A stretch of 64,000 nucleotides of DNA, from sequence record MT129652.1. One strand, 5' to 3'. The notes below the pieces were generated by a model, which was given only the letters and a program-made list of their open reading frames with translations, made no database searches and was not told the DNA's origin. Positions 1,217-59,744 of the stretch are shown in pieces. The stretch comes from Escherichia phage MN01. The stretch's first letter is position 1. Each line of letters begins with the position of its first letter. The position numbers were made by a program, and so were the translations under genes.

Positions 1217-1245
1217 TGTACAAGCTCAAAGAAACGTAGTATCAT
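1217..1245 (+). promoter_or_regulatory. sigma70-type early promoter TGTACA-N17-TATCAT
   Basis: Hexamers and spacing read directly; followed by leader TCAACTAATGAGGA. Confidence 0.55.
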
Positions 1246-1273
1246 TATCTTGTCAACTAATGAGGAAACCATT

Positions 1274-1504
1274 ATGTGGTATTATGCCCCAATGGCTGAT
1301 GAGCCTGTAAAAATTAGCCGTGCTAAGTTTACAAAGATTTACGGTCTCGTTTATAAAAAGTCTGATTACGGTGTGCGTTTTGAAGATGCACACTGTATCA
1401 ACGACCCTTATAATGAAGACCTCTATGGCAAATTGGTTCCTATCGTTAAGGGGTCCGCCTCTGAGATGATAGATGAATCTAATATATCTGCTGCTGAAAT
1501 TTAA
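1274..1504 (+). CDS. hypothetical protein (76 aa)
   Basis: ATG 1274 behind SD GAGGA; the track's TTG 1250 start lies in the leader. Confidence 0.55.
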   Translation: MWYYAPMADEPVKISRAKFTKIYGLVYKKSDYGVRFEDAHCINDPYNEDLYGKLVPIVKGSASEMIDESNISAAEI

Positions 1505-1523
1505 GTTATCTGAGGAAAATATT

Positions 1524-2483
1524 ATGATGTTAGTTATTGGTTCTCGTGCATTACATAACGCTGGCCTGATTGAAAGTCAGAAAATTGAAAACTCTGATTG
1601 GGACTTCATCGCTGACCAAGGTTCCTGGAACCACTTTAAAGCACGTATGTTCGGTGCTCATGTTCCTGTGGATAACCCTGATGTCCAAGCTTTTAAATGT
1701 ATGTACAATGGCAAAGAAACTTATTTTGAAGCTTATATTGTCCGTGCCCTGACCAACGTACGAGAAATTACTGGTGAGCTTCAAGACGAAGATTTCACCT
1801 CAAGTTATCGTCTCTTGAAATACGCTGAAAATCATATTAAGAAAGACCGTCTTACAGGTTTCTATTGGGCAACTCCTGATATTTGTCTGGCAATTAAACT
1901 GTCTCATCGTTACCTGAAGAACAATCCATTCTTCCTGAAGACCATGAGCCATATTAATTACCTTCGTAATAAGGGTGTTGTTCTTAATGATGAACTGCAG
2001 AAAATCATGCTGCAACGGCAGGCAGAAACACTGTCATACAGCCACCCTAAACTAGACGTGGGCAAGAAAACTTTCTTTAATGATACAATCTATACCCTTG
2101 ACCATGACTCCATCCACGAGGCCGTGGCGCTTGCTGATAAGCCTGCATATAAGTTCTATATGAAGGATGATTCAGAAGTCATGACCTCGCGTGAAAAATT
2201 TGAAGCACTCCCTGATGTTATTAAACTGGCAGGTGTTTATGAAGAAGCATGTGTACTTGCTCTGGAGCGTTCGCAGGTTCCCAATGAGTTTAATATCTCT
2301 CCATCCGTGAGCTTCCATATTGCTCTGGAAAAAGTCTGCACCTCCATTACTTCTGGATGGTTCCGTGAGTATGCCTGGGAACATTACCAGGAAGTGGTTA
2401 ATATGTACAACACCCTGGGTCGCGAAGACTATGTTAAACGTTTCAAGGCTAACCAACATTTAATTCGTCCTTTCACAAAATAA
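1524..2483 (+). CDS. hypothetical protein, possible nucleotidyltransferase-fold N-terminus
   Basis: ATG 1524 behind SD GAGGA; N-terminus VIGSRAL..x17..DWDFI loosely fits the GS...DxD NTase pattern. Confidence 0.6.
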   Translation: MMLVIGSRALHNAGLIESQKIENSDWDFIADQGSWNHFKARMFGAHVPVDNPDVQAFKCMYNGKETYFEAYIVRALTNVREITGELQDEDFTSSYRLLKYAENHIKKDRLTGFYWATPDICLAIKLSHRYLKNNPFFLKTMSHINYLRNKGVVLNDELQKIMLQRQAETLSYSHPKLDVGKKTFFNDTIYTLDHDSIHEAVALADKPAYKFYMKDDSEVMTSREKFEALPDVIKLAGVYEEACVLALERSQVPNEFNISPSVSFHIALEKVCTSITSGWFREYAWEHYQEVVNMYNTLGREDYVKRFKANQHLIRPFTK

Positions 2484-2486
2484 GTG

Positions 2487-2515
2487 TGTACATCCAAGTG
2501 GGACTATGACACAAT
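2487..2515 (+). promoter_or_regulatory. early promoter TGTACA-N17-CACAAT; -10 sits in the loop of hairpin 2498-2523
   Basis: GTGGGAC/GTCCCAC 7-bp stem brackets the -10. Confidence 0.5.
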
Positions 2516-2542
2516 GGTCCCACAATCAATGAGGAAAATATT

Positions 2543-3229
2543 ATGAACGGTCCAAAAACTTTTAATTCTCAAGCTCATGCAGTAGGCAGTTTCGCTGGTA
2601 AAATTTCTAATGATAAAATCAAAAACGAAACTATGTTCTTTAACAGCTCATTGGCTTTCGCTTTTGACAATGGTGGCCCTATTACTCGTAGCTTTATCAT
2701 GAGTCTGCCGGATGATTGGAACACTGACCAGGTTGTATTTGATTCTCGGGTTCATATGCTTATGCCTGGTTGGTATCCTGCTATCCCAGGTTATCACCAT
2801 GATGATGTACCACGCCCGGATATTCCGGTTGGTCAACACTTTATTACTGCAGGGCAACCTGATTATGATAATCCTCGTTACCATTCTGAACATATTCTTG
2901 GTCTTGTTAACGCTGATGTGTGTCCTACTTATTTTGCAACCGGAACTGCGCAATTTAGTCAGATTCCTGAAGGCGAACTTATCTATCGCCAGTGGCATAA
3001 AGAAGTTCTGGAAAAAATTGAGTCCAATGAATTAACCAAGTGGGATGCTCCTGACCGCACGTTGCTCCAGTTTGATTGGCAGACATGGCATACAGGTTCT
3101 CGCGCAGTAAGTAATGGTTGGCGCTGGTTTGGTCGTGTGTCTCGTAATACTGACCGTGTTAAAAAGATTACAAATGAAATCCGCGTCAATGCTCAAGTAT
3201 ATCTGGAATTCCCTATGGAGGGCTGGTAA
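2543..3229 (+). CDS. hypothetical protein, possible cupin/2OG-Fe(II)-oxygenase-like
   Basis: SD GAGGA; GYHHDD ... WHTGSRAVSNGWRWFGR resembles HxD...H...R; weak. Confidence 0.6.
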   Translation: MNGPKTFNSQAHAVGSFAGKISNDKIKNETMFFNSSLAFAFDNGGPITRSFIMSLPDDWNTDQVVFDSRVHMLMPGWYPAIPGYHHDDVPRPDIPVGQHFITAGQPDYDNPRYHSEHILGLVNADVCPTYFATGTAQFSQIPEGELIYRQWHKEVLEKIESNELTKWDAPDRTLLQFDWQTWHTGSRAVSNGWRWFGRVSRNTDRVKKITNEIRVNAQVYLEFPMEGW

Positions 3230-3816
3230 TGGCCCTTTATGAACCCGGCTGCATGGGTGTTGATGTAAACTTCATCCGCCGGGCAGAAAATACAGGTATA
3301 ATTGTATCAAGAGACGAATTTATGATTACCAAAAAATATTGGGCGAACCTTGATGATGGTGATGAAGGAATCAAGGTGGAAAATGTTGATTGGTCGCGAT
3401 GCAATCGTCATGTGAAAGAGCTTTTAATTAAGGAATATAAAATGGGATACATCATTAATGGGCATCAACCAGAACCGCTCAAAGAACAGACACCCGACCC
3501 ATTAATTTCTTATAGCAAGAAATATGGATTTCGTACCTGGAGTGATGAATTTGATAAGTTGATTTGTTCCAGGTTTTATGCCTGGGCTGGAATCTTATTT
3601 TTACCATTCCTGTGGTTTTTCTTGACAGGCAAAAATGAAGCACCCGTAGCTGTAATGGGCGCGTGCTTTTCTACTGCTCTTGCTGGGCTTATTGCATCAT
3701 TTTTATGGACTATGGTTATTGAAGTACCTTTTCGTATTTCTAAAGTTAAAAAGGTATATGACGATATCACTAAGAAAAATACATTGAACTCCTTTATTGA
3801 GGAATGCCGTAAATGA
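3229..3816 (+). CDS. membrane protein (two C-terminal TM helices)
   Basis: TAATG start/stop overlap; hydrophobic runs AGILFLPFLWFFL and LAGLIASFLWTMVI. Confidence 0.6.
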   Translation: MALYEPGCMGVDVNFIRRAENTGIIVSRDEFMITKKYWANLDDGDEGIKVENVDWSRCNRHVKELLIKEYKMGYIINGHQPEPLKEQTPDPLISYSKKYGFRTWSDEFDKLICSRFYAWAGILFLPFLWFFLTGKNEAPVAVMGACFSTALAGLIASFLWTMVIEVPFRISKVKKVYDDITKKNTLNSFIEECRK

Positions 3817-5026: not shown

Positions 5027-5329
5027 ATGAAAACGTATAAAGAATTTATCACCGAAGCGCGCGTAAGTGCAGGTAAATTAGAAGCCGCTGTAAATAAAAA
5101 GGCCCATTCATTTCATGATTTACCAGATAAAGACCGTAAGAAACTTGTAAGCCTTTATATTGACAAAGAGCGTATTCTAGCTCTCCCTGGCGCTAACGAA
5201 GGTAAACAGGCCAAGCCTTTGAATTCTGTCGAAAAGAAAATTGATAACTTTGCTTCTAAGTTCGGCATGTCTATGGATGACCTTCAGCAAGCGGCTATCG
5301 AAGCAGCTAAAGCAATTAAAGGTAAATAA
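5027..5329 (+). CDS. capsid internal protein (IPII/IPIII type) with capsid targeting sequence
   Basis: N-terminus [11 protein letters not shown] matches T4 IP targeting sequence MKTYQEFIAEA with the I-x-E cleavage site. Confidence 0.8.
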
Positions 5330-5331
5330 CA

Positions 5332-5360
5332 GTTTACTTCCACGATACGTGTGATATAAT
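5332..5360 (+). promoter_or_regulatory. early promoter GTTTAC-N17-TATAAT
   Basis: Classical T4 early hexamers 29 nt upstream of the denV ATG. Confidence 0.7.
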
Positions 5361-5388
5361 GTTCTCCTACAAACATAGGAGAACAAAC

Positions 5389-5805
5389 ATGACTCGCATT
5401 AATTTGACCCTGGTATCTGAACTTGCTGACCAACATCTTATGGCCGAATATCGTGAACTTCCTCGCGTGTTTGGCGCTGTTCGTAAGCATGTGCAAAATG
5501 GTAAAAAGGTTTCTGACTTTAAAATCCCATCATCTTTTCTTTTAGGGACTGGTCATGTCACCTTCTTTTATGATAAGCTTTTGTTCCTTAAAAACCGACA
5601 TCAAGAACTTATTGCGGAATGTTTAAAGCGAGGGTTTAACATAAAAGATATTTCTACCCAAGACTTAACTGATATTCCTGATGAATGGAAGAATGATTAT
5701 CAACCATCAATCTGGTCAATTGAAATCAGTCAAGCTAGGCTGAATGAGAAAATTTCTCAAAAGCCCGCTTGGTACAAATACTATGGGAAAGCTGTGTACG
5801 CTTAA
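5389..5805 (+). CDS. denV: endonuclease V (pyrimidine-dimer DNA glycosylase/AP lyase)
   Basis: [34 protein letters not shown] near-identical to T4 DenV; 138 aa; the track's 5359 start lies in the promoter. Confidence 0.96.
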
Positions 5806-5823
5806 CTACAAAGGTTGTATAAT
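5795..5823 (+). promoter_or_regulatory. early-type promoter TGTACG-N17-TATAAT
   Basis: Overlaps the denV 3' end; implies the ATG 5854 start for the next gene. Confidence 0.5.
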
Positions 5824-5853
5824 GATTTTATCAACCAAACAATGGAATATAAA

Positions 5854-6153
5854 ATGAAAACTTATCAAGAATTTATTACTGAAGCCAAAGCTCCTAAAGC
5901 ATTTCAAATTGGGGTTCAGGGTAATTTAGACCAACAATATGTTGATGCTATTGTAGCAAGCCTCGGTAAACAGGGTGTACAAGTGGATTTGGTTGATTTT
6001 ACTAAAGGTAATACTTTTAATATTGTTACATCTAAAGGTTCTTTAGCTAAAGTTAAAAAGGCCTTTGGTGTAGCACAAGCATACGAAATCGACCATTCTG
6101 AATTAGAAAATAAAGGTCGCCAGAACACAATTAAAGGTTCTGGTTCTTTCTAA
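5854..6153 (+). CDS. capsid internal protein with capsid targeting sequence
   Basis: MKTYQEFITEA at ATG 5854; the track's 5815 start is inside the -10 element. Confidence 0.75.
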   Translation: MKTYQEFITEAKAPKAFQIGVQGNLDQQYVDAIVASLGKQGVQVDLVDFTKGNTFNIVTSKGSLAKVKKAFGVAQAYEIDHSELENKGRQNTIKGSGSF

Positions 6154-7348: not shown

Positions 7349-7928
<580 letters not shown>

Positions 7929-7957
7929 TGTACAAGCAGATTGAAATGAGTTATGAT
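7929..7957 (+). promoter_or_regulatory. early promoter TGTACA-N17-TATGAT
   Basis: Followed by leader TATCCCATCAAACAAAAGGAG before regB. Confidence 0.55.
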
Positions 7958-7984
7958 TATCCCATCAAACAAAAGGAGATAATC

Positions 7985-8443
7985 ATGACTACTATCGATT
8001 CAAGTGTTTACATTCGCCGCAATAAACTTCGTCGCATTTTTGAAACGGAGTTCCTCAAAATTAATAATGCTATCAACAAGGCTTGTAAAGAAGCAGGCCT
8101 TGAAGCATTCTTCATTAAGTACAGTCCGCACCTGTTGGACCGTGCAATCCAACGTGAAATTGATGAACAATATGTTTTTGACTTGTTTGGAAAAATCACA
8201 CCACATGTAAAAGAAATCGTTGAATTCCTGGAGATGAAACCACTCCCGGAAGTTGAAGCACAAATTGACCCGAATGTGAACTACCGTCCACTTCGTCTGG
8301 AAATCACAGACAAGAACCTGTGGTTAGGAATGACAGTTAACCCGGCTCTTCCTGGGAAGTCTCCAACCATGTGTTGTCGTATGGCGTTTGTTAACTCTAA
8401 TCGTCTGGAAGGAAAAATTAGCACAAAAGTAATTTATATCTAA
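7985..8443 (+). CDS. regB: RegB endoribonuclease
   Basis: VYIRRNKLRR..HLLDRAIQREIDE..YRPLRLEITDKNLWLG matches T4 RegB; 152 aa. Confidence 0.92.
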   Translation: MTTIDSSVYIRRNKLRRIFETEFLKINNAINKACKEAGLEAFFIKYSPHLLDRAIQREIDEQYVFDLFGKITPHVKEIVEFLEMKPLPEVEAQIDPNVNYRPLRLEITDKNLWLGMTVNPALPGKSPTMCCRMAFVNSNRLEGKISTKVIYI

Positions 8444-11801: not shown

Positions 11802-11831
11802 AAAAGGTCTGCCTTCGGGTGGACCTTTTTT
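11802..11831 (+). terminator. rho-independent terminator
   Basis: GGTCTGCC-TTCG-GGTGGACC followed by T6. Confidence 0.75.
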
Positions 11832-11841
11832 CATTTAGGGG

Positions 11842-11871
11842 GTTTACATCCTCATAAAAAGGGTGTACTAT
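11842..11871 (+). promoter_or_regulatory. early promoter GTTTAC-N18-TACTAT
   Basis: Followed by leader TATCCCATCAACTACTGAGGAG. Confidence 0.5.
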
Positions 11872-11899
11872 TATCCCATCAACTACTGAGGAGAACACA

Positions 11900-12103
11900 A
11901 TGAGAATTAAAAATATTAAGATTGATGCAGTTAATACTGGTGATGAGGTTGTTATCTATCTTAATGATTATGCAATCTTTATGGACAGTGCCACTGATGA
12001 AGAAGTGGTTGAACTCTTACAGAAAGCTCCATTTGAACTGTGTGAAGAAGATGCTACTCATCTTTCATCAGCAATTTTCTCATTATCATATGTGGTGGAA
12101 TAA
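11900..12103 (+). CDS. hypothetical acidic protein (67 aa)
   Basis: SD GAGGAG. Confidence 0.55.
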   Translation: MRIKNIKIDAVNTGDEVVIYLNDYAIFMDSATDEEVVELLQKAPFELCEEDATHLSSAIFSLSYVVE

Positions 12104-15307: not shown

Positions 15308-15331
15308 AAGGACCCTTCGGGGTCCTTTTTT
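15308..15331 (+). terminator. rho-independent terminator
   Basis: AAGGACCC-TTCG-GGGTCCTT plus T-run. Confidence 0.8.
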
Positions 15332-15341
15332 ATTTTAAAGG

Positions 15342-15371
15342 TGTACAAACTTGTCTCTGTTGATGCATAAT
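15342..15371 (+). promoter_or_regulatory. early promoter TGTACA-N18-CATAAT
   Basis: Read directly. Confidence 0.5.
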
Positions 15372-15393
15372 GAATTTTTACTAAGGAGCCATT

Positions 15394-15570
15394 ATGAATC
15401 ATATGAGACCTCGCGTATCCAAACAAACGCGAGAAGAAGCGATTGAACATTTTAAACGCCATCATGGAAGTCAATCATGCGAGGTGATTGTTGGTATCGA
15501 CATAGAAAAGATGAAGGAAACTGCCAAGCACTACCAGGGCAGGATTGATATTAAAAATTATATAAAGTAG
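15394..15570 (+). CDS. hypothetical basic protein (58 aa)
   Basis: SD AAGGAG 5 nt upstream; not in the ORF track (<60 aa). Confidence 0.5.
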   Translation: MNHMRPRVSKQTREEAIEHFKRHHGSQSCEVIVGIDIEKMKETAKHYQGRIDIKNYIK

Positions 15571-15642
15571 TGTACATCAGTATGGGGATAGACGTATAAT
15601 GTTCCCATACTGAGTTACCAAATAAAAACGGAGAATAAAATG
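15570..15642 (+). repeat. promoter-leader cassette, direct repeat copy A
   Basis: About 90% identical to 16158-16226; contains TGTACA-N18-TATAAT and hairpin 15579-15611. Confidence 0.85.
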
Positions 15643-15852: not shown

Positions 15853-16155
15853 ATGAAAAAGTATGAACTTGACATGATTGACGCATGTCTGAAATCTGCT
15901 GACCATTTTAAGTTGAAAATGCACAAGTTAAGAGGAATGGTCAAAACTCCAGAAGAGAAGAAGCGTTATGCTCTGAAGGAGAAATGTAAAGCTCTTATCA
16001 TGATGGATAAGATGCAAATGGTCGCCGCAGAAGCTCACAGAACACGTAAAGCTGAGGCCCTTGGTGTTTATATGGCGGAGCAGCTCCATCGCGCCCAGCA
16101 AGCCGTTAAGAGCGTCTGGTTCAGCGGTGAAAATACTGAAAGAACTTTTAATTAA
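15853..16155 (+). CDS. hypothetical protein (100 aa)
   Basis: SD GAGGA. Confidence 0.55.
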   Translation: MKKYELDMIDACLKSADHFKLKMHKLRGMVKTPEEKKRYALKEKCKALIMMDKMQMVAAEAHRTRKAEALGVYMAEQLHRAQQAVKSVWFSGENTERTFN

Positions 16156-16157
16156 AT

Positions 16158-16226
16158 GTGTACATAGTATGGGGATAGACGTATAATGTTCCCATACTGA
16201 GTTACCAAATACTGGAGAATAAAATG
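16158..16226 (+). repeat. promoter-leader cassette, direct repeat copy B
   Basis: TGTACA 16159-16164, TATAAT 16182-16187, leader CCCATACTGAGTTACCAAAT. Confidence 0.85.
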
Positions 16227-17961: not shown

Positions 17962-18861
17962 ATGAAAATTAAAACTCGTGCTGAATATGCTAGTAGTTAT
18001 GAACCACATGACGGTCGTGTGACTCGTCTTATCGCAATGAATTCTTTGGTTAACTTTGGCAAAATCAAATCAGGTTCTGCTACCCAGGGGTATGGTCAAC
18101 GTATTGTAAGAATTAACTCTCTGAATGATTACTGCCGCCGCCCAGCGTTTTTGTTTGGTGCCACGGTTCGTAAGAGTATCAAGGAAATTCTGGCCGGCGG
18201 ATTTCGTATTCGCAAAGCTCCGGTTAACATCAAGAACTATAATTTTAACTCTGACAACTTGATTATCAATATCAAGAATGATGGTGTACAGATTAAGTTC
18301 AAACCAACCACCAAGGGCGATGTTGCTCTTTGTCATAACTTTAAAGAGGTTATGGGTATTGCGCTGTTTTATATGCGCCATGCTGTTGAATCGTACACGT
18401 TTGATGAAGATACAAATTATATCCACCAAACGGAAAAATTCCTCAAAACTATAGCTATTGATATTAAATTAACTAAAGAATATCTTTTGTCTTATGCTCC
18501 TTATCAAGAGAAAAATGAACCAGAAGATAAAAAGGAACCAGAAATGGAACGTATCCCTACCGCATCATATGGCCCAGCATTTGCAGGTCAGTTTAAATCT
18601 TACGACCAGACTAAAATTTCACCACTGGAAGTTAAAAATATGTATCAATGGAAAATCCAGCCCGACAGCTCTCTTGAAATCTTTAACCCACCAATGAAGC
18701 CTATTGAGAGCTATCATGCTGATGCTATCCGGGAATCGGTTAACCGCTTAAATGGTCTGATTGAAGATGAGAAAAAGGGTATCCAGGATGTTCTGAATCG
18801 CATCAAGAATATGGAAAAACAACGCAATAAATTGCAAGCTGCAATCAAAGCATTAAAATAA
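17962..18861 (+). CDS. hypothetical early protein (299 aa) with C-terminal coiled coil
   Basis: ATG 17962 just after the upstream stop; ends ...MEKQRNKLQAAIKALK. Confidence 0.65.
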   Translation: MKIKTRAEYASSYEPHDGRVTRLIAMNSLVNFGKIKSGSATQGYGQRIVRINSLNDYCRRPAFLFGATVRKSIKEILAGGFRIRKAPVNIKNYNFNSDNLIINIKNDGVQIKFKPTTKGDVALCHNFKEVMGIALFYMRHAVESYTFDEDTNYIHQTEKFLKTIAIDIKLTKEYLLSYAPYQEKNEPEDKKEPEMERIPTASYGPAFAGQFKSYDQTKISPLEVKNMYQWKIQPDSSLEIFNPPMKPIESYHADAIRESVNRLNGLIEDEKKGIQDVLNRIKNMEKQRNKLQAAIKALK

Positions 18862-18862
18862 T

Positions 18863-18892
18863 GTTTACTTCCAAGGATGGAGGGAGTATAAT
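18863..18892 (+). promoter_or_regulatory. early promoter GTTTAC-N18-TATAAT
   Basis: Read directly. Confidence 0.6.
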
Positions 18893-18919
18893 GAATTCCT
18901 ACTTTATGAGGAGAACACT

Positions 18920-19912
18920 ATGACGCGTAACGAATATATCCAGGCCTTTAATACCACTATTGATGCAAAAGTAAAACCATTAATAGGTGAATCGGCTATC
19001 CTTTTAATTATCAATTACTGGTTAAATCAGATTGACTCGACGATTGTTGCATCCGGTCGCTTCAAGAAAGACATTGCGACTATTGCGAGTCGTGCCGGTA
19101 AAGATGATATCAAGAAAACTTTTAAAGGTTCCCGAGTCCTGGCATACCTAGTTAATAAAGACCTTCTTAATAAGTTTGGTGTTGAATCCAGACGTGGTAA
19201 AGGTACAATTGGATATCATTGGTTTGGTGATGTTGAAAAATACTACCTTGATAATCAAGGCTATACTGTTTCTGAATTCGCAAATTGCTGGGCTCGTGAA
19301 TTCAGAGATAACAAAATGTCTATCATCAAATCAGCGACAAAATTGATGGGTGGCGATTATCGCACTATCTCCCATTTGGCTGAGCACATGATAAAGGTTA
19401 AAGAGTCTGGTGCAAACCAGGTAATTATTACAGCTAAGTATGGATTCTTTACGCCAGTGGCTACCCCAGAAAATGTCAAAAAGTATTTTGATGCTGCAAG
19501 TACGCTTACTTCACAGATGCAGTGTGCCCTTAATTATATGCGTACTGTTGAAAAAATTAAAGTAGACCCTATCACCAGTACTCATGGTTGGAAAGGTTGG
19601 AAAATTGTGGTGACATTACGCGAAGTTAAATGTGCAAAGCAACCAACTGTTGCAGAAATCCATAAAAAGAAAAATGAGGAAATTATGAACGCTCCGCATG
19701 AAGTTACCACCCTTGAAGACCTGATTGATAATCTGAATAATGAGCCAGTGAAACAAAAAGCGCCTGAAATTGTTGCCCTGGAAACAGCGTATAATGAAGC
19801 TCTTGCTGTTAATAAAAAAGCAACTGAAGACTATACAAAAGCCAAGCGACTTTGGGAAGAATCAACCAATCGTCTGGATAAACTGGAACAGGCCCTGGAG
19901 CTGCTGAAATGA
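18920..19912 (+). CDS. hypothetical early protein (330 aa) with C-terminal coiled coil
   Basis: SD GAGGAG; ends ...STNRLDKLEQALELLK. Confidence 0.65.
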   Translation: MTRNEYIQAFNTTIDAKVKPLIGESAILLIINYWLNQIDSTIVASGRFKKDIATIASRAGKDDIKKTFKGSRVLAYLVNKDLLNKFGVESRRGKGTIGYHWFGDVEKYYLDNQGYTVSEFANCWAREFRDNKMSIIKSATKLMGGDYRTISHLAEHMIKVKESGANQVIITAKYGFFTPVATPENVKKYFDAASTLTSQMQCALNYMRTVEKIKVDPITSTHGWKGWKIVVTLREVKCAKQPTVAEIHKKKNEEIMNAPHEVTTLEDLIDNLNNEPVKQKAPEIVALETAYNEALAVNKKATEDYTKAKRLWEESTNRLDKLEQALELLK

Positions 19913-38142: not shown

Positions 38143-38144
38143 GT

Positions 38145-38174: not shown

Positions 38175-38211
38175 TACTCCATCAACTGATGATTAAATTA
38201 AGGATATTAAA

Positions 38212-38454
38212 ATGGAAACATTAATTGCAGGTACTGTTGTTCTTGGCGCTGGTTCTTTCTTCCTGGCTGCACTGGCATATTTTCTGCCGTGGATTATCGC
38301 ACTACTGCGAGGAACCAAAAGTAATTGCGGAATCTTCTTTGTTAACCTCCTGTTAGGTTGGACAATGGTCGGATGGTTTATTGCATTTATCTGGGCACTC
38401 GTTGCTGAGCGTAAATCAAACGCACAAGTAATTATCATCAAGGAAACCAAATGA
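38212..38454 (+). CDS. imm: superinfection immunity protein (Imm family)
   Basis: YFLPWIIALLRG..NLLLGWTMVGWFIAFIWA signature; two TM; T4 imm position after 43. Confidence 0.7.
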   Translation: METLIAGTVVLGAGSFFLAALAYFLPWIIALLRGTKSNCGIFFVNLLLGWTMVGWFIAFIWALVAERKSNAQVIIIKETK

Positions 38455-42387: not shown

Positions 42388-42400
42388 AATATTTTTAAAA

Positions 42401-42435
42401 AAGGGGTGTACAAGCCCCTTGTCTTAGGACATAAT
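42401..42435 (+). promoter_or_regulatory. hairpin-promoter cassette: TGTACA in the loop of AAGGGG/CCCCTT; -10 CATAAT
   Basis: TGTACA 42407-42412, CATAAT 42430-42435; leader GTACTGAGTTACAC. Confidence 0.55.
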
Positions 42436-42485
42436 GATTCCGTACTGAGTTACACAATAAACCAACTGTTAAAAAGGAAAACCAT

Positions 42486-42788
42486 ATGTTTAATCAAACC
42501 GATATGAACCGTTACTATTTTGGTCAGTTCGCTCGCCGTGATGAAAACTGTGCTGCTCTTATCGCATCAGGCATTCAAACTGGTAAATTAATAAAGCTCA
42601 AAAGCGATGTTCAACCTTCATCTGTTCGCAGCTCTCTTCGTGAGTATCTGCTTGCAGGCGGTGAAGTATATGTTATCGCTGAACCTTTTGTTAACGTGTG
42701 TGATGATTACACAATTAGTGTGACTGTTATGCACCCAACTACTGGGAAAATTCGTTGTCTGACTATGCACAACTATGAGTTGGCGTAA
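42486..42788 (+). CDS. hypothetical protein (100 aa)
   Basis: SD AAGGAAA. Confidence 0.55.
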   Translation: MFNQTDMNRYYFGQFARRDENCAALIASGIQTGKLIKLKSDVQPSSVRSSLREYLLAGGEVYVIAEPFVNVCDDYTISVTVMHPTTGKIRCLTMHNYELA

Positions 42789-42795
42789 GTGAACA

Positions 42796-42830
42796 AAGGG
42801 GCTTACAGCCCCTTTTTCTTATGTTATAAT
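42796..42830 (+). promoter_or_regulatory. terminator-promoter fusion: AAGGGGC-TTACA-GCCCCTT plus T-run, loop gives -35 CTTACA, -10 TATAAT
   Basis: Stem 42796-42802/42808-42814; TATAAT 42825-42830. Confidence 0.6.
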
Positions 42831-42856
42831 GACTCTATCAACTACTGGAGAATAAA

Positions 42857-43174
42857 ATGAAAACCATTGATTGCAAGGCAGAATACAAAGTTTATTATCA
42901 TGGGTCAAGCTCTAATGCTGGAATCCAAAATATGCTTTGTCCTCCTGATGCAACTGGTGTTCTGTCAGAAGTTGGACGTAAGAAAAATTTAGGGCGTGTG
43001 TTTTTTACTGAAGATATTGGTTTGGCGCGTATCTATGCAGGAAGAGCAGCTCGCTCATATGGAGGAGAACCCCGTCTTTATCGTGTGATTGCACCGGTTG
43101 ACGTGGTTTGTTTAAATGATACTAAAGGCGCAACAGTTTATCACGCTGCCTGGGCCTTTTGTGAGGAAATCTAA
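42857..43174 (+). CDS. candidate minimal ADP-ribosyltransferase-fold protein (PARP/Arr-like H-[YF]-[ED])
   Basis: YYHGSS, GRVFFTED, EPRLYRVIAP resemble HG[ST] / G[IV]YF[ST] / acidic-strand motifs; 105 aa; not verified. Confidence 0.55.
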   Translation: MKTIDCKAEYKVYYHGSSSNAGIQNMLCPPDATGVLSEVGRKKNLGRVFFTEDIGLARIYAGRAARSYGGEPRLYRVIAPVDVVCLNDTKGATVYHAAWAFCEEI

Positions 43175-43378: not shown

Positions 43379-43618
43379 ATGAATATCGCATTAATGAAAC
43401 CTACCCCTAGTTCTTTTTGGAATAAATCTTTTGGTAAGCATAATATGTTTATCCAACGCACCGTAAGCAGCTGGGAACTAGTTCTTTCAGTCGGCCACAA
43501 TGATTATGAACAAGAATACGTAGAGTTCTTCGATTTTCCTGTGAAACCTACCAAGCGTCAGATTCGTCAGACAAAACGCAAATTCCGCAAAATTTATCTG
43601 GAAGATGCATTAAAATAG
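43379..43618 (+). CDS. hypothetical basic protein (61.4 slot)
   Basis: 79 aa between dmd and sp. Confidence 0.5.
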   Translation: MNIALMKPTPSSFWNKSFGKHNMFIQRTVSSWELVLSVGHNDYEQEYVEFFDFPVKPTKRQIRQTKRKFRKIYLEDALK

Positions 43619-43647
43619 TGTACAACAAAGGGATAATGCTGTATATT
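43619..43647 (+). promoter_or_regulatory. early promoter TGTACA-N17-TATATT
   Basis: Followed by leader CCCTATCAACTACTGAGGAG. Confidence 0.55.
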
Positions 43648-43675
43648 ATCCCTATCAACTACTGAGGAGATTGAA

Positions 43676-43969
43676 ATGAAAAAGTTATTAATCGCGGCAA
43701 TTCTTACCGTAGCATCATGTGGTACAGCTCCAGTTACTGCTGGACTTGATAAAGACCTTTGTGAGTGGTCTATGACTGCCGACCAGACTGATGTTGAACA
43801 TCAGATTTATGCTGATATCATGAACATAACTAAACGTGACCGCCCTGATATGGTTAAAGAAGTATCTGACCAATTGACTTCTGGTGACGTTATGCAGTAT
43901 AACTATGTTCTGTATTGCGATGCTTCATTTGACAATAGCAAAATTGTTCAATGGGTTACAGGTGAATAA
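43676..43969 (+). CDS. sp: Spackle (periplasmic lysozyme inhibitor, superinfection exclusion)
   Basis: 97 aa; signal peptide ending VASC; DKDLCEWSMTADQT..VMQYNYVLYCD as I recall for T4 Sp. Confidence 0.7.
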   Translation: MKKLLIAAILTVASCGTAPVTAGLDKDLCEWSMTADQTDVEHQIYADIMNITKRDRPDMVKEVSDQLTSGDVMQYNYVLYCDASFDNSKIVQWVTGE

Positions 43970-49705: not shown

Positions 49706-50266
49706 ATGAACATCATCAAATCTGATACCGAACCCAACCAGTTAAAATTTAGTGAAATGGAGATAGCTTCATTATTTGAATGCCGCACATCAAAGGTTGA
49801 TAAGACCTTGCATTCAAATGTCAACTCAATCATCAAGTCAAGGTTGTCTATACCCGATACAGTCTTGTGGCGCGGAGTAACCCAGCAAGAGATTGATTTG
49901 TTAGATGAAGCAAAAGAATCAATGCAACCTTTTGAATTTGGACGGGTAACCTCCTTTACAGAAGACTATGGTATTGCCAGGGATTTTGCTGCAATGGAAT
50001 ATGTGACTAGGACTATCGTCAGATTGAATCAGACCAAAGCTTTTTGTTACCATGATGCGATGCGCAAAATCGCGCTTGACGTTCCACTGGAATTCTTCAA
50101 TACAGCTTCTGGTTCCGCCCGGGCAGCTACATTAAGGCGCGAAGAATACATGGACATGATTGATTCTGAGCTTGAATGGTTTGTTCCAGTTGACCAGAAA
50201 TTCGTGGTAGTTGACGCTGGATTTGTTGGTGATTATTATGTTCTTGACTGTGTACAAGAGCAATAA
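49706..50266 (+). CDS. ModA/ModB-family ADP-ribosyltransferase (modB position)
   Basis: R-S-E triad: VLWRGV, TSFTED, SELEWFVP. Confidence 0.75.
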   Translation: MNIIKSDTEPNQLKFSEMEIASLFECRTSKVDKTLHSNVNSIIKSRLSIPDTVLWRGVTQQEIDLLDEAKESMQPFEFGRVTSFTEDYGIARDFAAMEYVTRTIVRLNQTKAFCYHDAMRKIALDVPLEFFNTASGSARAATLRREEYMDMIDSELEWFVPVDQKFVVVDAGFVGDYYVLDCVQEQ

Positions 50267-50279
50267 GACACGTTAAGAT
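50251..50279 (+). promoter_or_regulatory. early promoter TGTACA-N17-TAAGAT
   Basis: -35 lies within the upstream gene's 3' end; leader CCTATCAACTACTGATGAGGA. Confidence 0.5.
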
Positions 50280-50310
50280 GTTCCTATCAACTACTGATGA
50301 GGATAATAAA

Positions 50311-50925
50311 ATGCTGTACACTGATGACGTTTTGAATGGAATTATTGACACTGCCGCTTCTAGCGAGTCTTTTCGTGACCAATGTCAAGCTGAGATTGAT
50401 GCTCTTTATACAGATAATGAGCAATCAGTACTCTGGCAGTGTATGGAAAATAAACCCGACCTGATTCAAGAAGACTTGTCCAGGATTATCCGCAACAATC
50501 TGAATACTGCACCGCCGGCAGCATTGTTCCGTGGTATATCAAAGAAAACCATGGAATACCTGGAAGATTTAAGATATGTTGGTGCAATAATTGAGTTCAA
50601 CCGTGTGATGAGTTTTTCCAGAGACTGGCAGGTTGCAAGAAATTTTGCATCATACAGTTTCTATGGCACAAGGAACATTTTCTGTATAAACAATGCACCA
50701 TATGCGTATAACTATCAGGAAGCAATCTTCAAAATGATTTGCGGTGCTCCTCCCGAAGAGTTCAATGGTGCATATCCAGAAGCAACCAGGAAGTCAAACC
50801 TACACCTGGTTAATGATGAGGATGAGTTTATGTTTCCCGCTGGGACTACGCTTCGCGTAGACTTGATTGAAACTCACCCATTGAATAACCTTTATACTGT
50901 TTGGCATTTGACTGTTTTGAACTAA
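50311..50925 (+). CDS. ModA/ModB-family ADP-ribosyltransferase (modA position)
   Basis: ATG 50311 behind SD GAGGA; ALFRGIS, MSFSRD, NDEDEFMFP. Confidence 0.75.
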   Translation: MLYTDDVLNGIIDTAASSESFRDQCQAEIDALYTDNEQSVLWQCMENKPDLIQEDLSRIIRNNLNTAPPAALFRGISKKTMEYLEDLRYVGAIIEFNRVMSFSRDWQVARNFASYSFYGTRNIFCINNAPYAYNYQEAIFKMICGAPPEEFNGAYPEATRKSNLHLVNDEDEFMFPAGTTLRVDLIETHPLNNLYTVWHLTVLN

Positions 50926-50985
50926 CCAAAGACCTTAGAACCATTATACGCAGTAAAAATAAAAGCGTTAAAGGTGAAAAAGTAG

Positions 50986-51013
50986 TGTACATGAAAGATG
51001 AACAGTGTATAAT
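50986..51013 (+). promoter_or_regulatory. early promoter TGTACA-N16-TATAAT
   Basis: Leader CATACTGAGTTACCAAAT. Confidence 0.5.
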
Positions 51014-51060
51014 AATTTCATACTGAGTTACCAAATCGTCCGTAAGATGAGAAAAATAAC

Positions 51061-51804
51061 ATGAATATGTCAAAAGAAGAGTTTGAATTAAAAGTTTACA
51101 AACGTCGCGAGCATACCAAAACGTCTGCAAAACGTCGTAACAAGGATTTCAATCTGTCTAGTAAGTATATTGCTAATCTTTTGAAACAAGAATTCTGTGC
51201 GTATTCTGGTGAACGTTTTGATGAAAATTCAACTCAAGATAAAGTTTCCTTTGAACGCTTTAACAATGATATAGGTTATATTGAAGGCAATGTTATCCCT
51301 GTCAAAACTAAGTACAACGGTTTACGTGCTGATTTATCTCTTGATGAACTTAAACGTGCACAGACTCGTTTGGCGGTGCGTATTAATGGCGGTTCTAAGA
51401 TGCCCAATAGTTTTAAAGTAACTCCTGATGGCTATTATAAAATTCGCAAAATTGTTAAAAATATTAAAGATACTGAACGTGGAATCAAGAAGCGTCAAAA
51501 ACATTTAAAAGAGCTTTATAAAAGTGGCGCTAAAGATACCACCCCTTCTGTGATTGCAGTCAAGGCTCGTATACATGGACAAATGGCTTCCATTGGAACT
51601 AGTCAACGTGGACTGAAAATGGTTATGGGTGGTCCTGACTGGCGTCTGAAAATGAAATCATCTGACGCTGAAACGCGTTACGATATGTATGATAAAATTA
51701 TTCAAGGTCTGGAGCGTTTAGATAAGTTGTCATTCATTGACCGTCTTAAACTGAAACGTGGCCTGCCTTTGAACGCGTCAATTTTTAAACTGATTAGAGG
51801 TTAA
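51061..51804 (+). CDS. hypothetical protein in the T4 srd slot with a degenerate HNH-like segment
   Basis: 247 aa; SFERFNNDIGYIEGNVIPV..N resembles ..R.DN..GY..GNV..; identity by position. Confidence 0.55.
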   Translation: MNMSKEEFELKVYKRREHTKTSAKRRNKDFNLSSKYIANLLKQEFCAYSGERFDENSTQDKVSFERFNNDIGYIEGNVIPVKTKYNGLRADLSLDELKRAQTRLAVRINGGSKMPNSFKVTPDGYYKIRKIVKNIKDTERGIKKRQKHLKELYKSGAKDTTPSVIAVKARIHGQMASIGTSQRGLKMVMGGPDWRLKMKSSDAETRYDMYDKIIQGLERLDKLSFIDRLKLKRGLPLNASIFKLIRG

Positions 51805-53697: not shown

Positions 53698-54378
53698 ATT
53701 GATGCTATTATTGACTTTGAAACTCTGGGAAACGGCTCGAAGGGAGCCGTTATTGACCTGGCTCTGATTACATTCGAATCTGACCCTGCTATTGTGGAAT
53801 CATTCGAAACCCTGGTTAATCGCGGCAAACGTATTAAGTTCAGTCTCGAATACCAAAAAGGTAAGCGGTTGTTCGACACAACAACCATGGGTTGGTGGAA
53901 AAAGCAATCAGCGGAAGCCCGTGTTAACTTGGCTCCTTCTGCACAAGATGTTGATACTCTGACCGGTATCCAACAAGCAATTGATTATCTGAATGGTAAT
54001 GGAATTAACAAATACGAAAGCCTTATGTGGTGTCGTGGAATGTCTTTTGACTTCCCGTTGTTTGTTGACCTTATCCGCGACCTGCAACGCAATGAGGGGA
54101 TTCCTGAGCGCGAATTGAATACCTATGACCTGGAGCCGGTTGTATTCTGGAACCAGCGAGATATCAGGACAGCCATCGAAGCCCTATCACTCGTCCGTAA
54201 GATGTGTGAAACTCCATTACCGAAGGGGACTTTAGATGGATTTGTGGCGCATGATTCGGTGCATGACTGCGCGAAAGATATTTTGATGTTGAAGTATGCC
54301 CAGCGCTATGCTCTTGGTTTAGATGAAGTTCCTTCCGAAGAAGATGCAGACCCATTATCTTTACCGAAAAAACGATAA
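53695..54378 (+). CDS. dexA: exonuclease A (DexA)
   Basis: MIDAIIDFETLGNGSKGAVIDLALI.. DEDDh N-terminus; 227 aa as in T4. Confidence 0.9.
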   Translation: MIDAIIDFETLGNGSKGAVIDLALITFESDPAIVESFETLVNRGKRIKFSLEYQKGKRLFDTTTMGWWKKQSAEARVNLAPSAQDVDTLTGIQQAIDYLNGNGINKYESLMWCRGMSFDFPLFVDLIRDLQRNEGIPERELNTYDLEPVVFWNQRDIRTAIEALSLVRKMCETPLPKGTLDGFVAHDSVHDCAKDILMLKYAQRYALGLDEVPSEEDADPLSLPKKR

Positions 54379-54385
54379 AAAGTAG

Positions 54386-54414
54386 TGTACAAGGCCAATG
54401 GAAAGAGACATAAT
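54386..54414 (+). promoter_or_regulatory. early promoter TGTACA-N17-CATAAT
   Basis: Leader TCTCATCAACTACTGATGAGGA. Confidence 0.55.
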
Positions 54415-54445
54415 TATCTCATCAACTACTGATGAGGATAACAAA

Positions 54446-54703
54446 ATGATTACTTCTTTTGAAATTGGCCAACAATATGAAATGTCTGCTCTTCAAGCTG
54501 CTGAAGCAGGTCTGACTAAAGCGTTTGAATGTGCATTTACAAATATTCGTGGTAAAATCTTTACTGTCAATAAAATTGCGGTATATGATAAAGAAACAGA
54601 CATGAACAAAGGCATCTACTTGAACGTGTCAAACGCAAAAGGTCGTCGTGAAATTATGGTTGTACAACCTAACCAACTGGCGATGTTCAATAAGGTTGCA
54701 TAA
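54446..54703 (+). CDS. single-module protein (85 aa) of the local ~80-aa module family
   Basis: ATG 54446 behind SD GAGGA; FEIGQQYEM...GKIFTVNKI... Confidence 0.55.
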   Translation: MITSFEIGQQYEMSALQAAEAGLTKAFECAFTNIRGKIFTVNKIAVYDKETDMNKGIYLNVSNAKGRREIMVVQPNQLAMFNKVA

Positions 54704-55458
54704 TGAAACCAGAATTTATTGACTTTGATGTTGTAAGCATGTATGTTCGCCCAATTAAACCATTAAAACTTGAGAAACAAAATATGACTATTGAAATTAA
54801 CAAAACTTATCAACTGATTGAACCTATTATTCAAAACGCAGCTATGGTTTCTGGGTATAATACTCTGACTGATGCTTTAGGCGAAGGTGAATTTATTGTT
54901 GAAACTTTTGTAAAAAGTAACTGGTTTGATAAAGCATATATTCTACATGCACGTCGCCTTGATACAAATGAAGTAGAAAAAATTACGGTTTATGAAGCTG
55001 AGATTGAACTCTTCAAAGAAGTTGAAGAAACTCCTATCAAAGTTGGTAAAACCTATCAGCTTATTGAAGATGCTAGTCAGTTTGGAAAGACCGTTGCAAT
55101 GCATGCTGGTTGGCGCGTACTGAAAGGTATTTTTGGATTTGCTCCATTTACCGTTAAAACAGTTAAGTACCACAATCACCAAAGCATCTTTGAATTTACT
55201 GCGGTCAATGAATCAGGTGACAATCTTGAAGCTATCCTTTATCCGCGTGAATCTGTACTGCTGGAAGAAGTTAGCGAACTGGGTGACCCTATTGACTTGC
55301 TGTGTAAACCAGTTCAAATCAAACGCCCATTTAACAGTTCCATTTGTGGTTGGGTAACAGACCAGTGGATTGAAGAGGGTGTTGAACTCCTGAACGTTGT
55401 TCATGCTGGTGAATTTACTGTTGTACCACGTTCCATGGTTGTTGAAATTTTTAATTAA
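54703..55458 (+). CDS. three-domain protein: two ~80-aa modules plus a shared C-terminal domain
   Basis: INKTYQLIE.. and VGKTYQLIED.. internal repeat; C-terminus GWVTDQWIEEGVELLNVV..FTVVP. Confidence 0.6.
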   Translation: MKPEFIDFDVVSMYVRPIKPLKLEKQNMTIEINKTYQLIEPIIQNAAMVSGYNTLTDALGEGEFIVETFVKSNWFDKAYILHARRLDTNEVEKITVYEAEIELFKEVEETPIKVGKTYQLIEDASQFGKTVAMHAGWRVLKGIFGFAPFTVKTVKYHNHQSIFEFTAVNESGDNLEAILYPRESVLLEEVSELGDPIDLLCKPVQIKRPFNSSICGWVTDQWIEEGVELLNVVHAGEFTVVPRSMVVEIFN

Positions 55459-55466
55459 ATTTAAAG

Positions 55467-55495
55467 TGTACAAACTCTTGGGGTCGGAGTATAAT
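55467..55495 (+). promoter_or_regulatory. early promoter TGTACA-N17-TATAAT; -10 in the loop of hairpin 55480-55501
   Basis: GGGGTC/GACCCC stem. Confidence 0.55.
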
Positions 55496-55537
55496 GACCC
55501 CACTGGAGAATAAACTTATTAACCAAGAGAGAAAATT

Positions 55538-56098
55538 ATGAAAGTTGAAGCTGGCGAAATCGTTCGCGTATCCAAAAAATCTCGTTCAAGAGCTGCTGGA
55601 CGTTTTGTTGAGGTTGTCAGTATTCGTGCTGATATTTTTGTTGACCATCCTGATAATGAAGTAAAGGTGCGTATCATTCCCAAAAATGGTCAGACTGAAA
55701 CTCAATTCGCTTATGTACGTGCTAAATTCCTGGAATCAACTGCTATCACTGCCACCAACCTCCCTGTGGTTGAAGAAGTTGAATCCCATGATGGATATGT
55801 GTGCGAAAGCAATGATATTCGTGGCGTAATTGCTCAAGACGTTGAAACCATTGACCAGTCTCATGTTGGGGTTGATTTTAAATGGAAATTGGGCAAAGGT
55901 GTCTTTTTTGTTTCACCTAAACCGTTTGAATATGTTGACGAACCTTTTGGTACTTATGAAACCACTAGCATGTCTGGTTACATCACAGACCAGTGGGTTG
56001 AAGAAGGCGTTAAGCTCTATAACATCGTGTTCCTTGGAACCTTTAAGGTGGTTCCTGAAAGCTTTATCGTTGAGTATGCTGATATTCATCGTGCCTAA
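55538..56098 (+). CDS. KOW-like N-terminus plus shared C-terminal domain (possible MotB-slot protein)
   Basis: MKVEAGEIVRVSKKSRSRAAGRFVEVV; C-terminus GYITDQWVEEGVKLYNIV..FKVVP. Confidence 0.55.
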   Translation: MKVEAGEIVRVSKKSRSRAAGRFVEVVSIRADIFVDHPDNEVKVRIIPKNGQTETQFAYVRAKFLESTAITATNLPVVEEVESHDGYVCESNDIRGVIAQDVETIDQSHVGVDFKWKLGKGVFFVSPKPFEYVDEPFGTYETTSMSGYITDQWVEEGVKLYNIVFLGTFKVVPESFIVEYADIHRA

Positions 56099-59490: not shown

Positions 59491-59493
59491 ATA
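59486..59493 (+). promoter_or_regulatory. late promoter TATAAATA overlapping the gene 39 stop
   Basis: Exact 8-mer. Confidence 0.5.
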
Positions 59494-59496
59494 GAT

Positions 59497-59516
59497 ACGG
59501 GAGAATATTCTCCCGT
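59497..59516 (+). repeat. perfect 20-nt palindrome ACGGGAGAATATTCTCCCGT
   Basis: Read directly. Confidence 0.9.
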
Positions 59517-59532
59517 CTTATAGGAGAAGTCC

Positions 59533-59685
59533 ATGAAAAAGTGGTGGGTTACGTTGTCAAATGGCGAATACGGTTATCTGTGGGCCGATACTAAACCTCT
59601 GTTTGCATCCTTTGTCACCATTATGTGCGAGACTTGGGATGGCGAATACTATACCGCATATGGGCAAGTCTATAAAGTTGAGTAG
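59533..59685 (+). CDS. hypothetical Trp/Tyr-rich protein (50 aa)
   Basis: SD TAGGAG 6 nt upstream; followed by a terminator. Confidence 0.5.
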   Translation: MKKWWVTLSNGEYGYLWADTKPLFASFVTIMCETWDGEYYTAYGQVYKVE

Positions 59686-59687
59686 CC

Positions 59688-59711
59688 AAAAGGACCTTCG
59701 GGTCCTTTTTT
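59688..59711 (+). terminator. rho-independent terminator
   Basis: AAAAGGACC-TTCG-GGTCCTTTT plus T-run. Confidence 0.85.
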
Positions 59712-59715
59712 ATTA

Positions 59716-59744
59716 TGTACAAGCCACAAAAATTACGTTAAGAT
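59716..59744 (+). promoter_or_regulatory. early promoter TGTACA-N17-TAAGAT
   Basis: Read directly. Confidence 0.5.

Follow-up and report, generated by a model that had tools for sequence, protein, structure and literature searches.

Promoter cassettes in the early region of MN01

The 64,000 nucleotides of Escherichia phage MN01 analysed here (sequence record MT129652.1; hereafter the window) carry nearly all of their genes on the + strand, in the order of the T4 early region, i.e. denV, regB, tk, 49, 55, 46, 45, 44, 62, regA, 43, imm and uvsX, followed by 41, sp, 61, 56, soc, modA/B-like genes, dda, motB, 39, rIIA and rIIB. An 8-kb slice is ~95% identical to T4-like coliphages of the SP18/VR20 type, and the records closest to the window are classified as Straboviridae, Tevenvirinae, Gaprivervirus. 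Distributed among these genes are 20 strong promoter cassettes, every one of them on the + (early-gene) strand. Judged from their sequence, these are very probably the immediate-early expression cassettes of Gaprivervirus, a genus-specific form of the promoter-early-stem-loop (PeSL) or early-promoter module of T4-type phages.

All cassettes share one layout: a run of A, a -35 element of the form G-TGTAC-A, a -10 element (TAtaAT), a CCCAT start region, a leader and finally a Shine–Dalgarno (SD) sequence with its ATG. Boxes that match sigma70 promoters at the sequence level, with a T[G/T]TAC[A/T/G]-type -35, a 16-18 nt spacer and a TAnnnT-like -10, are present in 20/20, as are the SD and start codon at the 3′ end and the intergenic placement. 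Column by column, the -35 region reads G (19/20), T (19), G (15), T (20), A (20), C (20) and A (17), meaning that TAC is invariant and G occupies -36 in all cassettes save one; downstream follow the spacer, TAtaAT and (G/T)(A/T)T-CCC-A-T. The A-run lies at -9 to -4 relative to the -35 hexamer (10-14/20 per column), the AT content upstream ranges from 0.52 to 0.92 in the 16 cassettes tabulated, and a G stands four bases 5′ of the -10 in 14/20. TGTACA is the -35 hexamer in 14 cassettes and TGTACG in one, the others being TTTACA/T (four) and CTTACA (one); with a possible extra promoter at 49650, an earlier note on this DNA, made from the sequence alone, was fair in counting TGTACA at 15 of 21 promoters. 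Its contrast with GTTTAC of T4 was off by one in register, yet it captures a real one-base difference, GTGTAC versus GTTTAC, i.e. a G at -34.

Generic sigma70 consensus scans were uninformative (66 and 58 sites versus 53 and 54 in shuffles), and a cassette-specific hidden Markov model was therefore needed. The nhmmer profile was built from the 20 cassettes as seeds, whose recovery is thus by construction; it added two weak + strand extras (21774 and the -10-only site 25163) and detected no credible cassette on the - strand of the window. For comparison, we used six related genomes; the relatives named below are M719, TH41, TH57, TH44, TH22 and VR phages. In TH41, a complete genome, 41/41 cassettes lie on the early-gene strand and none in the late-gene blocks.

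The cassette-proximal genes include the classical T4 early genes regB, motB, imm, sp and denV. The suggestion that most orphan genes are flanked by cassettes is not borne out: the window has ~145 open reading frames (ORFs) and 20 cassettes, most small ORFs stand in promoter-less runs, and among the 20 proximal genes at least 7 are conserved, namely denV, regB, imm, sp, motB, a DUF7367 gene and a gene resembling ADP-ribosyltransferases (Pfam match below threshold).

RegB target sites in the leaders

Directly behind cassette 7929 lies regB itself (7985-8443, + strand; Pfam REGB_T4, E 3.8e-72), which encodes an endoribonuclease cutting GGAG/U sites and whose own SD, AAGGAGA, contains GGAG. The efficient RegB/S1 target is the 11-mer GGAGRAYARAA, with GGAGAAUAAAA as the T4 optimum, and GGAU is accepted if a strictly A-rich tail follows (Durand et al. 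2006, PMC1702504; also Uzan & Miller 2010, PMC3014915). That many SDs of the window contain GGAG had been remarked before; this is correct, and the motif is enriched at cassettes, occurring in the SD of 9/20 cassette-proximal genes versus 12/125 others (Fisher p=3e-4).

Exact GGAGAATAAAA sites occur at 15630, 16214 and 42847 (0.47 expected in the window) and GGATAAYAAAA sites at 25186, 50301 and 54436 (0.24 expected), and all six of these exact matches fall in cassette leaders. The motB leader adds a site with one mismatch to the 11-mer (GGAGAATAAAC at 55503). In TH41, 10/12 + strand RegB/S1 sites reside in cassettes, which make up 2.7% of the genome, and the - strand has a single site. The candidate cut sites, GGAGAAUAAAA or GGAUAAUAAAA, stand at the 3′ ends of many leaders and would thus explain the leader's 3′ half, though not its first 12 bases.

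Two further observations concern GGAG. In the motB leader (55503-55537), CTGGAGAATAAA stands before CTT, and cassettes 16159 and 42802 have an ATG after this string; the motB copy resembles a leftover SD/RegB junction 5′ of the motB SD proper and may be compared with the RegB site in the T4 motB leader. Across the window, GGAG occurs 88 times on the mRNA-sense strand versus 136 times for its complement CTCC, despite a positive GC skew (316 versus 341 in TH41). This scarcity would fit avoidance of RegB sites, or of SD-like sequences at internal positions.

Two conserved leader classes

The cassettes carry two different classes of leader, and about a third of them belong to neither. The class A core, ATCAACTACTGA, has six matches at ≤1 mismatch versus 0.41 expected, and class B has four at ≤3 mismatches versus 0.37 expected, all of them on the + strand of the window. 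Both classes proposed in the earlier note are real; three of its nine class A sites (1251, 7961 and 38178) and one of its four class B sites (42443) are partial matches only. ATCAAC starts exactly 6 nt after the -10, which makes its A the expected +1.

The leaders are far more alike than the sequences next to them. Among strong class A members, pairwise identity averages 0.97 over the first 12 leader bases versus 0.35 for the -35/-10 spacers; for class B the values are 0.92 and 0.25. The same leaders are found in the six relatives, 98% conserved across orthologs, where the first 14 nt (0.979) rank with the -35 (0.991), the -10 (0.982) and the SD region (0.973), versus 0.908 for the spacer, 0.912 for the discriminator, and 0.970 and 0.877 for codon positions 2 and 3. 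Taken together, the ortholog and paralog identities argue that the leader is constrained, i.e. under selection, and not merely a recent copy.

Copying does occur: cassettes 15571 and 16159 are near-identical over spacer, -10 and leader, and relatives carry a copy of cassette 11843 at a second locus. It is nonetheless very unlikely that the leaders have no function of their own and resemble each other only through recent copying or homogenisation by gene conversion, given that most pairs combine unrelated spacers with near-identical leaders right beside them and that orthologous leaders exceed even codon position 2 in identity. In addition, the 5′ part of the leader (yyTATCAAC) is not specific to the genus and recurs in other T4-like genera: ATCA[AT] has the same spacing from the -10 in 24-83% of the early promoters predicted for several other T4-like clades versus 2.5% in the background. 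GTGTAC, on the other hand, is predominant only in Gaprivervirus among the T4-like clades compared.

The leader motifs are tied to promoter-initiated 5′ ends. On the + strand of TH41, all 16 copies of ATCAACTAC and all 12 copies of CATACTGAG lie within cassettes, and none precedes a promoter-less internal gene. In IMG/VR, the extended class A 16-mer has 5-6 copies in each of the three Gaprivervirus genomes included there and one copy in each of the other contigs that contain it, except for one contig with two; single matches in unrelated contigs are, by an uncomputed estimate, about chance level, and only multi-copy presence is meaningful.

Three explanations for the conservation of the leaders fared poorly. 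A 5′-terminal RNA hairpin (CAUCA...UGAUG) in class A was rejected: it is confined to the long, 'TGATGAG' form and missing from the short one, comprises 4-5 weak pairs and cannot be reconciled with the 2-nt loop implied at 38146. Stop codons in three frames were rejected as well, as a stop is present in one frame only. A role as general translational enhancers is unlikely for leaders that never precede promoter-less internal genes.

What, then, are the first bases for? We prefer to read the first 12 as a constrained, unstructured initial-transcribed 5′ segment that would serve promoter escape and access of S1, ribosomes and RegB. Alternatively, the first 12-14 transcribed bases could be more than an unstructured spacer, namely a dedicated cis-element acting at the level of the DNA or of the 5′ RNA end, such as an operator for early-promoter shut-off, a 5′ tag for a phage or host factor or an initial-transcribed sequence adapted to promoter escape. 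The strict location of the motifs at the predicted +1 of cassettes, their fixed distance from the -10, the strong conservation between orthologs and the partial conservation of the ATCAA start across genera would all suit such an element, and the shut-off of T4 early promoters has been described as incompletely understood (Uzan & Miller 2010, PMC3014915). Yet no candidate binding protein or complementary RNA emerged—the window contains no antisense or complementary copy of the leaders, and Rfam matches no family anywhere in it—nor is there a consistent RNA structure, and one would have to accommodate two leader classes plus the third of cassettes in neither. The linkage could also arise simply from the inheritance of promoter and leader as one unit. 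On balance, we regard a dedicated cis-element as rather unlikely. The narrower proposal, that the first ~12 bases (AUCAACUACUGA or AUACUGAGUUAC), which are conserved like the -35 and -10 hexamers, form an element of the early class as a whole and could act as operator or 5′ tag for class-wide early shut-off, is more doubtful still.

Hairpins, terminators and the layout of individual cassettes

About half of the cassettes (~10/20) have an embedded hairpin: three over the -35, five over the -10, one in the spacer and one in the leader. In comparison with 200 shuffles each, the 71-nt windows starting at 2467, 5313, 15551, 16139, 24013, 42782 and 55447 fold with z-scores of -2.7 to -4.8, and those starting at 38126, 42387 and 43599 with about -1.7 to -1.8; the remaining 71-nt cassette windows gave no significant embedded structure. 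All coordinates listed in the earlier note display the features described there, including a -35 in the hairpin loop at three sites and a -10 in a stem-loop at five.

The -35 forms a hairpin loop at 24026, 42401 and 42796. The first of these cassettes (24021..24095) has its TGTACA in the loop of a GGGG/CCCC hairpin (24026-24048, z -3.3), followed by a long class A leader (ATCAACTACTGATGAGGA) and the ATG at 24093. In cassette 42407 (42395..42488), the hairpin at 42401-42422 precedes a class B-like leader. Cassette 42802 (42790..42859) is a predicted terminator-promoter fusion, as previously noted: its hairpin (42795-42815, z -3.7), which holds CTTACA in the loop and has its own T-run, is listed by the terminator scan and is followed by TATAAT, a class A leader and GGAGAATAAAA at 42847.

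The -10 lies inside a hairpin at 2498, 15579, 16166, 43627 and 55480 as well as at the promoter-less 25163, and the 3′ arm of these hairpins is always the conserved CCC(A) start region. Cassette 2487 (2475..2545, TGTACA-N17-CACAAT, ATG 2543) has its hairpin at 2498-2523 (GTGGGAC...GTCCCAC, z -3.2). The class B cassettes 15571 (15559..15642, TGTACA-N18-TATAAT, hairpin 15579-15611, z -4.8) and 16159 (16147..16226, TGTACA-N17-TATAAT, hairpin 16166-16198, z -3.3) have RegB/S1 sites at 15630 (GGAGAATAAAA) and 16214. Before sp (Spackle), cassette 43619 (43607..43678, TGTACA-N17-TATATT) combines a hairpin formed by AGGGATAAT and ATTATCCCT with a class A leader. The cassette before motB (55455..55540, TGTACA-N17-TATAAT, hairpin 55480-55501, z -2.7) includes the RegB-type site at 55503 and, farther downstream, a second, true SD. 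The half-cassette at 25163..25229 has no -35; its hairpin (25163-25184) encloses TATAAT, directly 3′ of which stands a GGAU-type RegB/S1 site (GGATAATAAAA at 25186).

Elsewhere, the hairpin leaves the promoter boxes free. Cassette 5333 before denV (5321..5391, TTTACT-N16-TATAAT) has a leader hairpin (5360-5385, z -2.8) predicted to sequester the SD (GGAGAACAAAC), and cassette 38146 before imm (38134..38214, TTTACA-N17-TATGAT) a spacer hairpin (CGGCA...TGCCG) and a truncated class A leader. Three further cassettes stand directly 3′ of canonical terminators: 11843 (11802..11902), where the terminator at 11802-11829 precedes TTTACA-N17-TACTAT, the class A leader ATCAACTACTGAGGAG and the ATG at 11900; 15342 (15308..15396), with the terminator at 15308-15327, TGTACA-N18-CATAAT and ATG 15394; and 59716 (59688..59764), with the terminator at 59688-59709, TGTACA-N17-TAAGAT and ATG 59762.

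Among the others, the cassette at 1205..1276 (TGTACA-N17-TATCAT) has no hairpin and a weak class A leader (TCAACTAATGAGGA) before ATG 1274. Cassette 5795 (5783..5856, TGTACG-N17-TATAAT, ATG 5854) has the leader TATCAACCAAAC, and cassette 7929 before regB (7917..7987, TGTACA-N17-TATGAT) a leader starting with CCCATCAAAC. The one at 18852..18922 (TTTACT-N17-TATAAT, ATG 18920) has the SD GAGGAGAAC. Long class A leaders occur at 50239..50313 (TGTACA-N17-TAAGAT), with the GGAU-type RegB/S1 site GGATAATAAAA at 50301 and a downstream gene whose match to Pfam DRAT (ADP-ribosyltransferase) is below threshold, and at 54374..54448 (TGTACA-N17-CATAAT), with GGATAACAAAA at 54436. The cassette at 50974..51063 (TGTACA-N16-TATAAT, ATG 51061) has a class B leader.

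Could the embedded hairpins be functionless, arising by chance where a G-rich spacer meets the conserved CCC discriminator? The CCC(A) region does supply the 3′ arm of every -10-type hairpin, 7-10 cassettes have no significant structure, and the hairpin of cassette 42407 is lost in VR phages. Still, only 0-4 of 200 shuffles fold as well as the native sequence in the seven cassettes with the lowest z-scores (down to -4.8), and relatives keep the stems through pairing-preserving changes: the stem of the motB cassette shows a T-A to C-G double change in TH41, wobble and Watson–Crick pairs interchange among relatives in the stem of cassette 2487, and cassettes 43619 and 42802 retain the stem with a new loop in VR phages. 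A TGGGATA...TATCCCA design, moreover, is repeated in several TH41 cassettes, and RB49 stem-loops of this kind lowered read-through in a reporter (Arbiol et al. 2010, PMC2839356). We therefore consider chance an improbable source of the hairpins and favour a function in handling read-through transcription.

Apart from the early cassettes, the window contains a separate class of six MotA-box-type middle promoters (TGCTT-N13-15-TATAAT; 0.19 expected), all on the + strand (23003, 26339, 46645, 47809, 57611 and 63743) and located, e.g., before genes 55, 56 and 39. At 47786-47832, a strong terminator (AGGGACTCTTCGGAGTCCCT plus T-run) follows soc, and its T-run enters a MotA box (TTTTGCTTTT) and TATAAT, a composite that resembles the 'PmSL' described for nt-1.

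Exchange of cassettes and genes among relatives

Alignment of the window to the six relatives yielded 46 distinct indel or replacement events, several of which move cassettes. Cassette 42407 and ORF 42486-42788 form a module absent from 4/6 relatives, with the crossover in the AT-rich/GGGG stem sequence AAAAAGGGG, and cassette 15342 is missing together with ORF 15394-15570 from two (TH44 and TH22). Conversely, insertions found only in relatives, at ~5883 and behind gp41, contain cassettes of their own: such insertions occur in four relatives just 3′ of cassette 5795, and the one after gp41 (TH41/TH44) contains a near-copy of cassette 11843, spacer included, 30 kb away from the original. In M719, TH41, TH57 and TH44, the denV cassette has been swapped for a different, class A cassette. 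Finally, cassette 15571 has taken the spacer and -10 of cassette 16159, which points to gene conversion.

These events invite the view that the cassettes are primarily mobile recombination modules, that their conservation merely provides portable homology and that they are the main drivers of ORF gain and loss, and of mini-circles, in the genus. At first sight, the distribution of breakpoints agrees: 12 fall in cassette spans versus 2.9 expected at random positions. This 4-fold excess arises because indels fall at gene boundaries in general; against the proper null, breakpoints occur at 7/20 cassette junctions versus 40/124 other gene junctions (Fisher p=0.50). Approximately 36 of the 46 events touch no cassette at all, and several are precise deletions with an overlap of a few bases. 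Furthermore, the spacer varies freely while the hexamers, leader and RegB site are conserved, which argues for selection on expression signals and not on length of homology. A primary role as mobile modules is thus unlikely. Cassette-mediated exchange is real but not the dominant process in this six-relative sample, and the part of the PeSL idea that makes the cassettes drivers of shuffling is only anecdotally supported here.

Exact deletions of single ORFs also occur in relatives at cassette-free junctions (57183-57593, 47225-47504, 24829-24954 and 17662-17737). The flanking alignments overlap by 3-10 bases only, which suggests recombination between short repeats at gene boundaries. Just outside the window, a TH44 locus (1224-2638, upstream of the region syntenic with the window; merged from two entries) and TH41 70947-71992 contain 3-4 consecutive class B cassettes, ~400-500 bp apart and each with a small ORF behind it, a dense array typical of a hyperplastic region.

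Comparison with known early promoters

PeSLs were originally described as composites of an AT-rich tract and sigma70 boxes with an SD and start codon, plus a G/C stem-loop for which there are five positions, among them over the -35 and over the -10; they occur preferentially before ORFans and at indels (Arbiol et al. 2010, PMC2839356). A later study extends them from RB49/phi1 to T4/PST and KVP40/nt-1 (Comeau et al. 2014, PMC4122927). The MN01 cassettes resemble these elements in their AT-rich upstream tract, sigma70-type boxes, stem-loop over the -35/-10 or upstream, SD and start codon, and location between early genes; some also bound cassette-plus-ORF indels, with crossovers in AT-rich/stem or leader regions. 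They differ in having GTGTACA as the -35 in place of TTGACA (RB49) or TTTACW (T4/PST), in their two sharply conserved leader classes, which the portions consulted of both papers do not describe, and in the full RegB/S1 site at the end of many leaders. The stem-loop part of the definition fits about two thirds of the cassettes, the remaining third being without one, and there is no statistical excess of indels at cassette junctions over other gene junctions in the six relatives. The likeness to PeSLs drawn in the earlier note thus extends to sigma70-type anatomy, early strand, regB, RegB 11-mers and module indels, and stops short of an indel excess at junctions.

The T4 early promoters stand on the same strand and in the same positions before regB, motB, imm, sp and denV, and share the A-rich UP-like tract, G at -36, TAC at -33 to -31 and TATAAT (Hinton 2010, PMC2988021; Nolan et al. 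2006, PMC1524935). A preference for C just before the start has also been reported for RB69, RB49 and 44RR (Nolan et al. 2006, PMC1524935). In contrast to T4, the cassettes have G instead of T at -34, do not conserve the TGn of T4 (PMC2988021) and have a much more strongly conserved leader; in other T4-like genera, the variable position is -33 (Nolan et al. 2006, PMC1524935). With respect to RegB/S1 sites, there are several parallels with T4: regB is present and its SD contains GGAG, three cassette SDs match GGAGAAUAAAA exactly, another three have the GGAU variant together with a strict A-rich tail, and a leader site is predicted 5′ of motB, the RNA of which serves as a RegB substrate in T4 (PMC1702504; PMC3014915). 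The predicted sites of these phages differ in being almost solely a component of promoter cassettes, as the 10/12 genome-wide in TH41 illustrate.

The accessible literature yielded neither the GTGTACA -35, two promoter-exclusive leader classes, the cross-genus ATCAA start nor the near-exclusive location of RegB/S1 11-mers in cassettes, and no earlier description of the early promoters of VR7, SP18 or JS98 was found there.

Other features of the window

Three other loci deserve mention. After gene 46, a 773-bp segment (31269-32041) is absent from 6/6 relatives. It contains an ORF on the - strand (31276-31992) for a 238-aa protein in which an HNH motif (SHHIIPRCMGGADDASNLVDLTPEEH) is accompanied by repeated, zinc-ribbon-like CxxC motifs; its Pfam HNH and Zn_ribbon matches are below threshold, and it is probably a free-standing homing endonuclease. 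At 23094-23216, 121 bp in the window correspond to ~2.4 kb in 5/6 relatives (annotated as nrdD and nrdG in M719), TH44 likewise being without this segment; MN01 apparently lacks the anaerobic ribonucleotide reductase. Lastly, two adjacent genes match Pfam motB (54703-55458 and 55538-56098), the former weakly and within its C-terminal 40 residues only, so that it may contain a duplicated or fused motB-related domain.

A model of immediate-early control

Based on these data, we propose that host sigma70 RNA polymerase would bind the A-rich UP-like run, the G-TGTAC-A -35 and the TAtaAT -10, and would start transcription at the A of CCCAT, 7 nt after the -10. The transcript would begin with one of two conserved, G-poor leaders (AUCAACUACUGA... 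or AUACUGAGUUACC...) running into the SD. In many cassettes, this SD forms part of the 11-nt RegB/S1 target (either GGAGAAUAAAA or GGAU with an A-rich tail), which is why RegB, itself expressed from a cassette, could cut and silence these mRNAs minutes later, as has been demonstrated in T4. The hairpins over the -35 and -10 would form only in read-through RNA from upstream. Given the T-run at 42795 and the three directly upstream terminators, hairpins and terminators most likely attenuate or insulate upstream transcription or cap the 3′ ends of upstream mRNAs. Because cassettes share 40-100 bp of similarity, they occasionally recombine, and the comparison with relatives shows the resulting gain and loss of modules, swaps and gene conversion, although most indels here have another source.

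Several points weigh against this model. Seven of the 20 cassettes have neither a hairpin nor an adjacent terminator; most embedded hairpins are without a T-run, and it is doubtful that such hairpins act as terminators. Neither RegB nor the SD accounts for the first 12-14 leader bases. The extended -10 is not conserved, with TG at the TGn position in ~3-4/20 cassettes, and TGTACA fits TTGACA less well than does TTTACA of T4, which makes the strength of the predicted promoters correspondingly uncertain. The six relatives are related by descent and hence not phylogenetically independent, and the activity of the predicted promoters, transcription start sites, terminators and RegB sites rests on sequence in combination with the work on T4 and RB49.

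The cassettes provide a testable map of immediate-early control in Gaprivervirus, with ~20 promoters in the window and 41 in a full relative, in which the context of the start, the class of leader, the putatively insulating hairpins and the predicted RegB cut sites are defined; several phages of the genus are present in phage-therapy collections. The map shows that the RegB/S1 target is an integral part of the promoter cassette and that the leader is selected, its 5′ part being common across genera. It also tempers the hypothesis of PeSL-driven shuffling: module exchange occurs in these phages, with cassettes no more prone to indels than ordinary gene boundaries.

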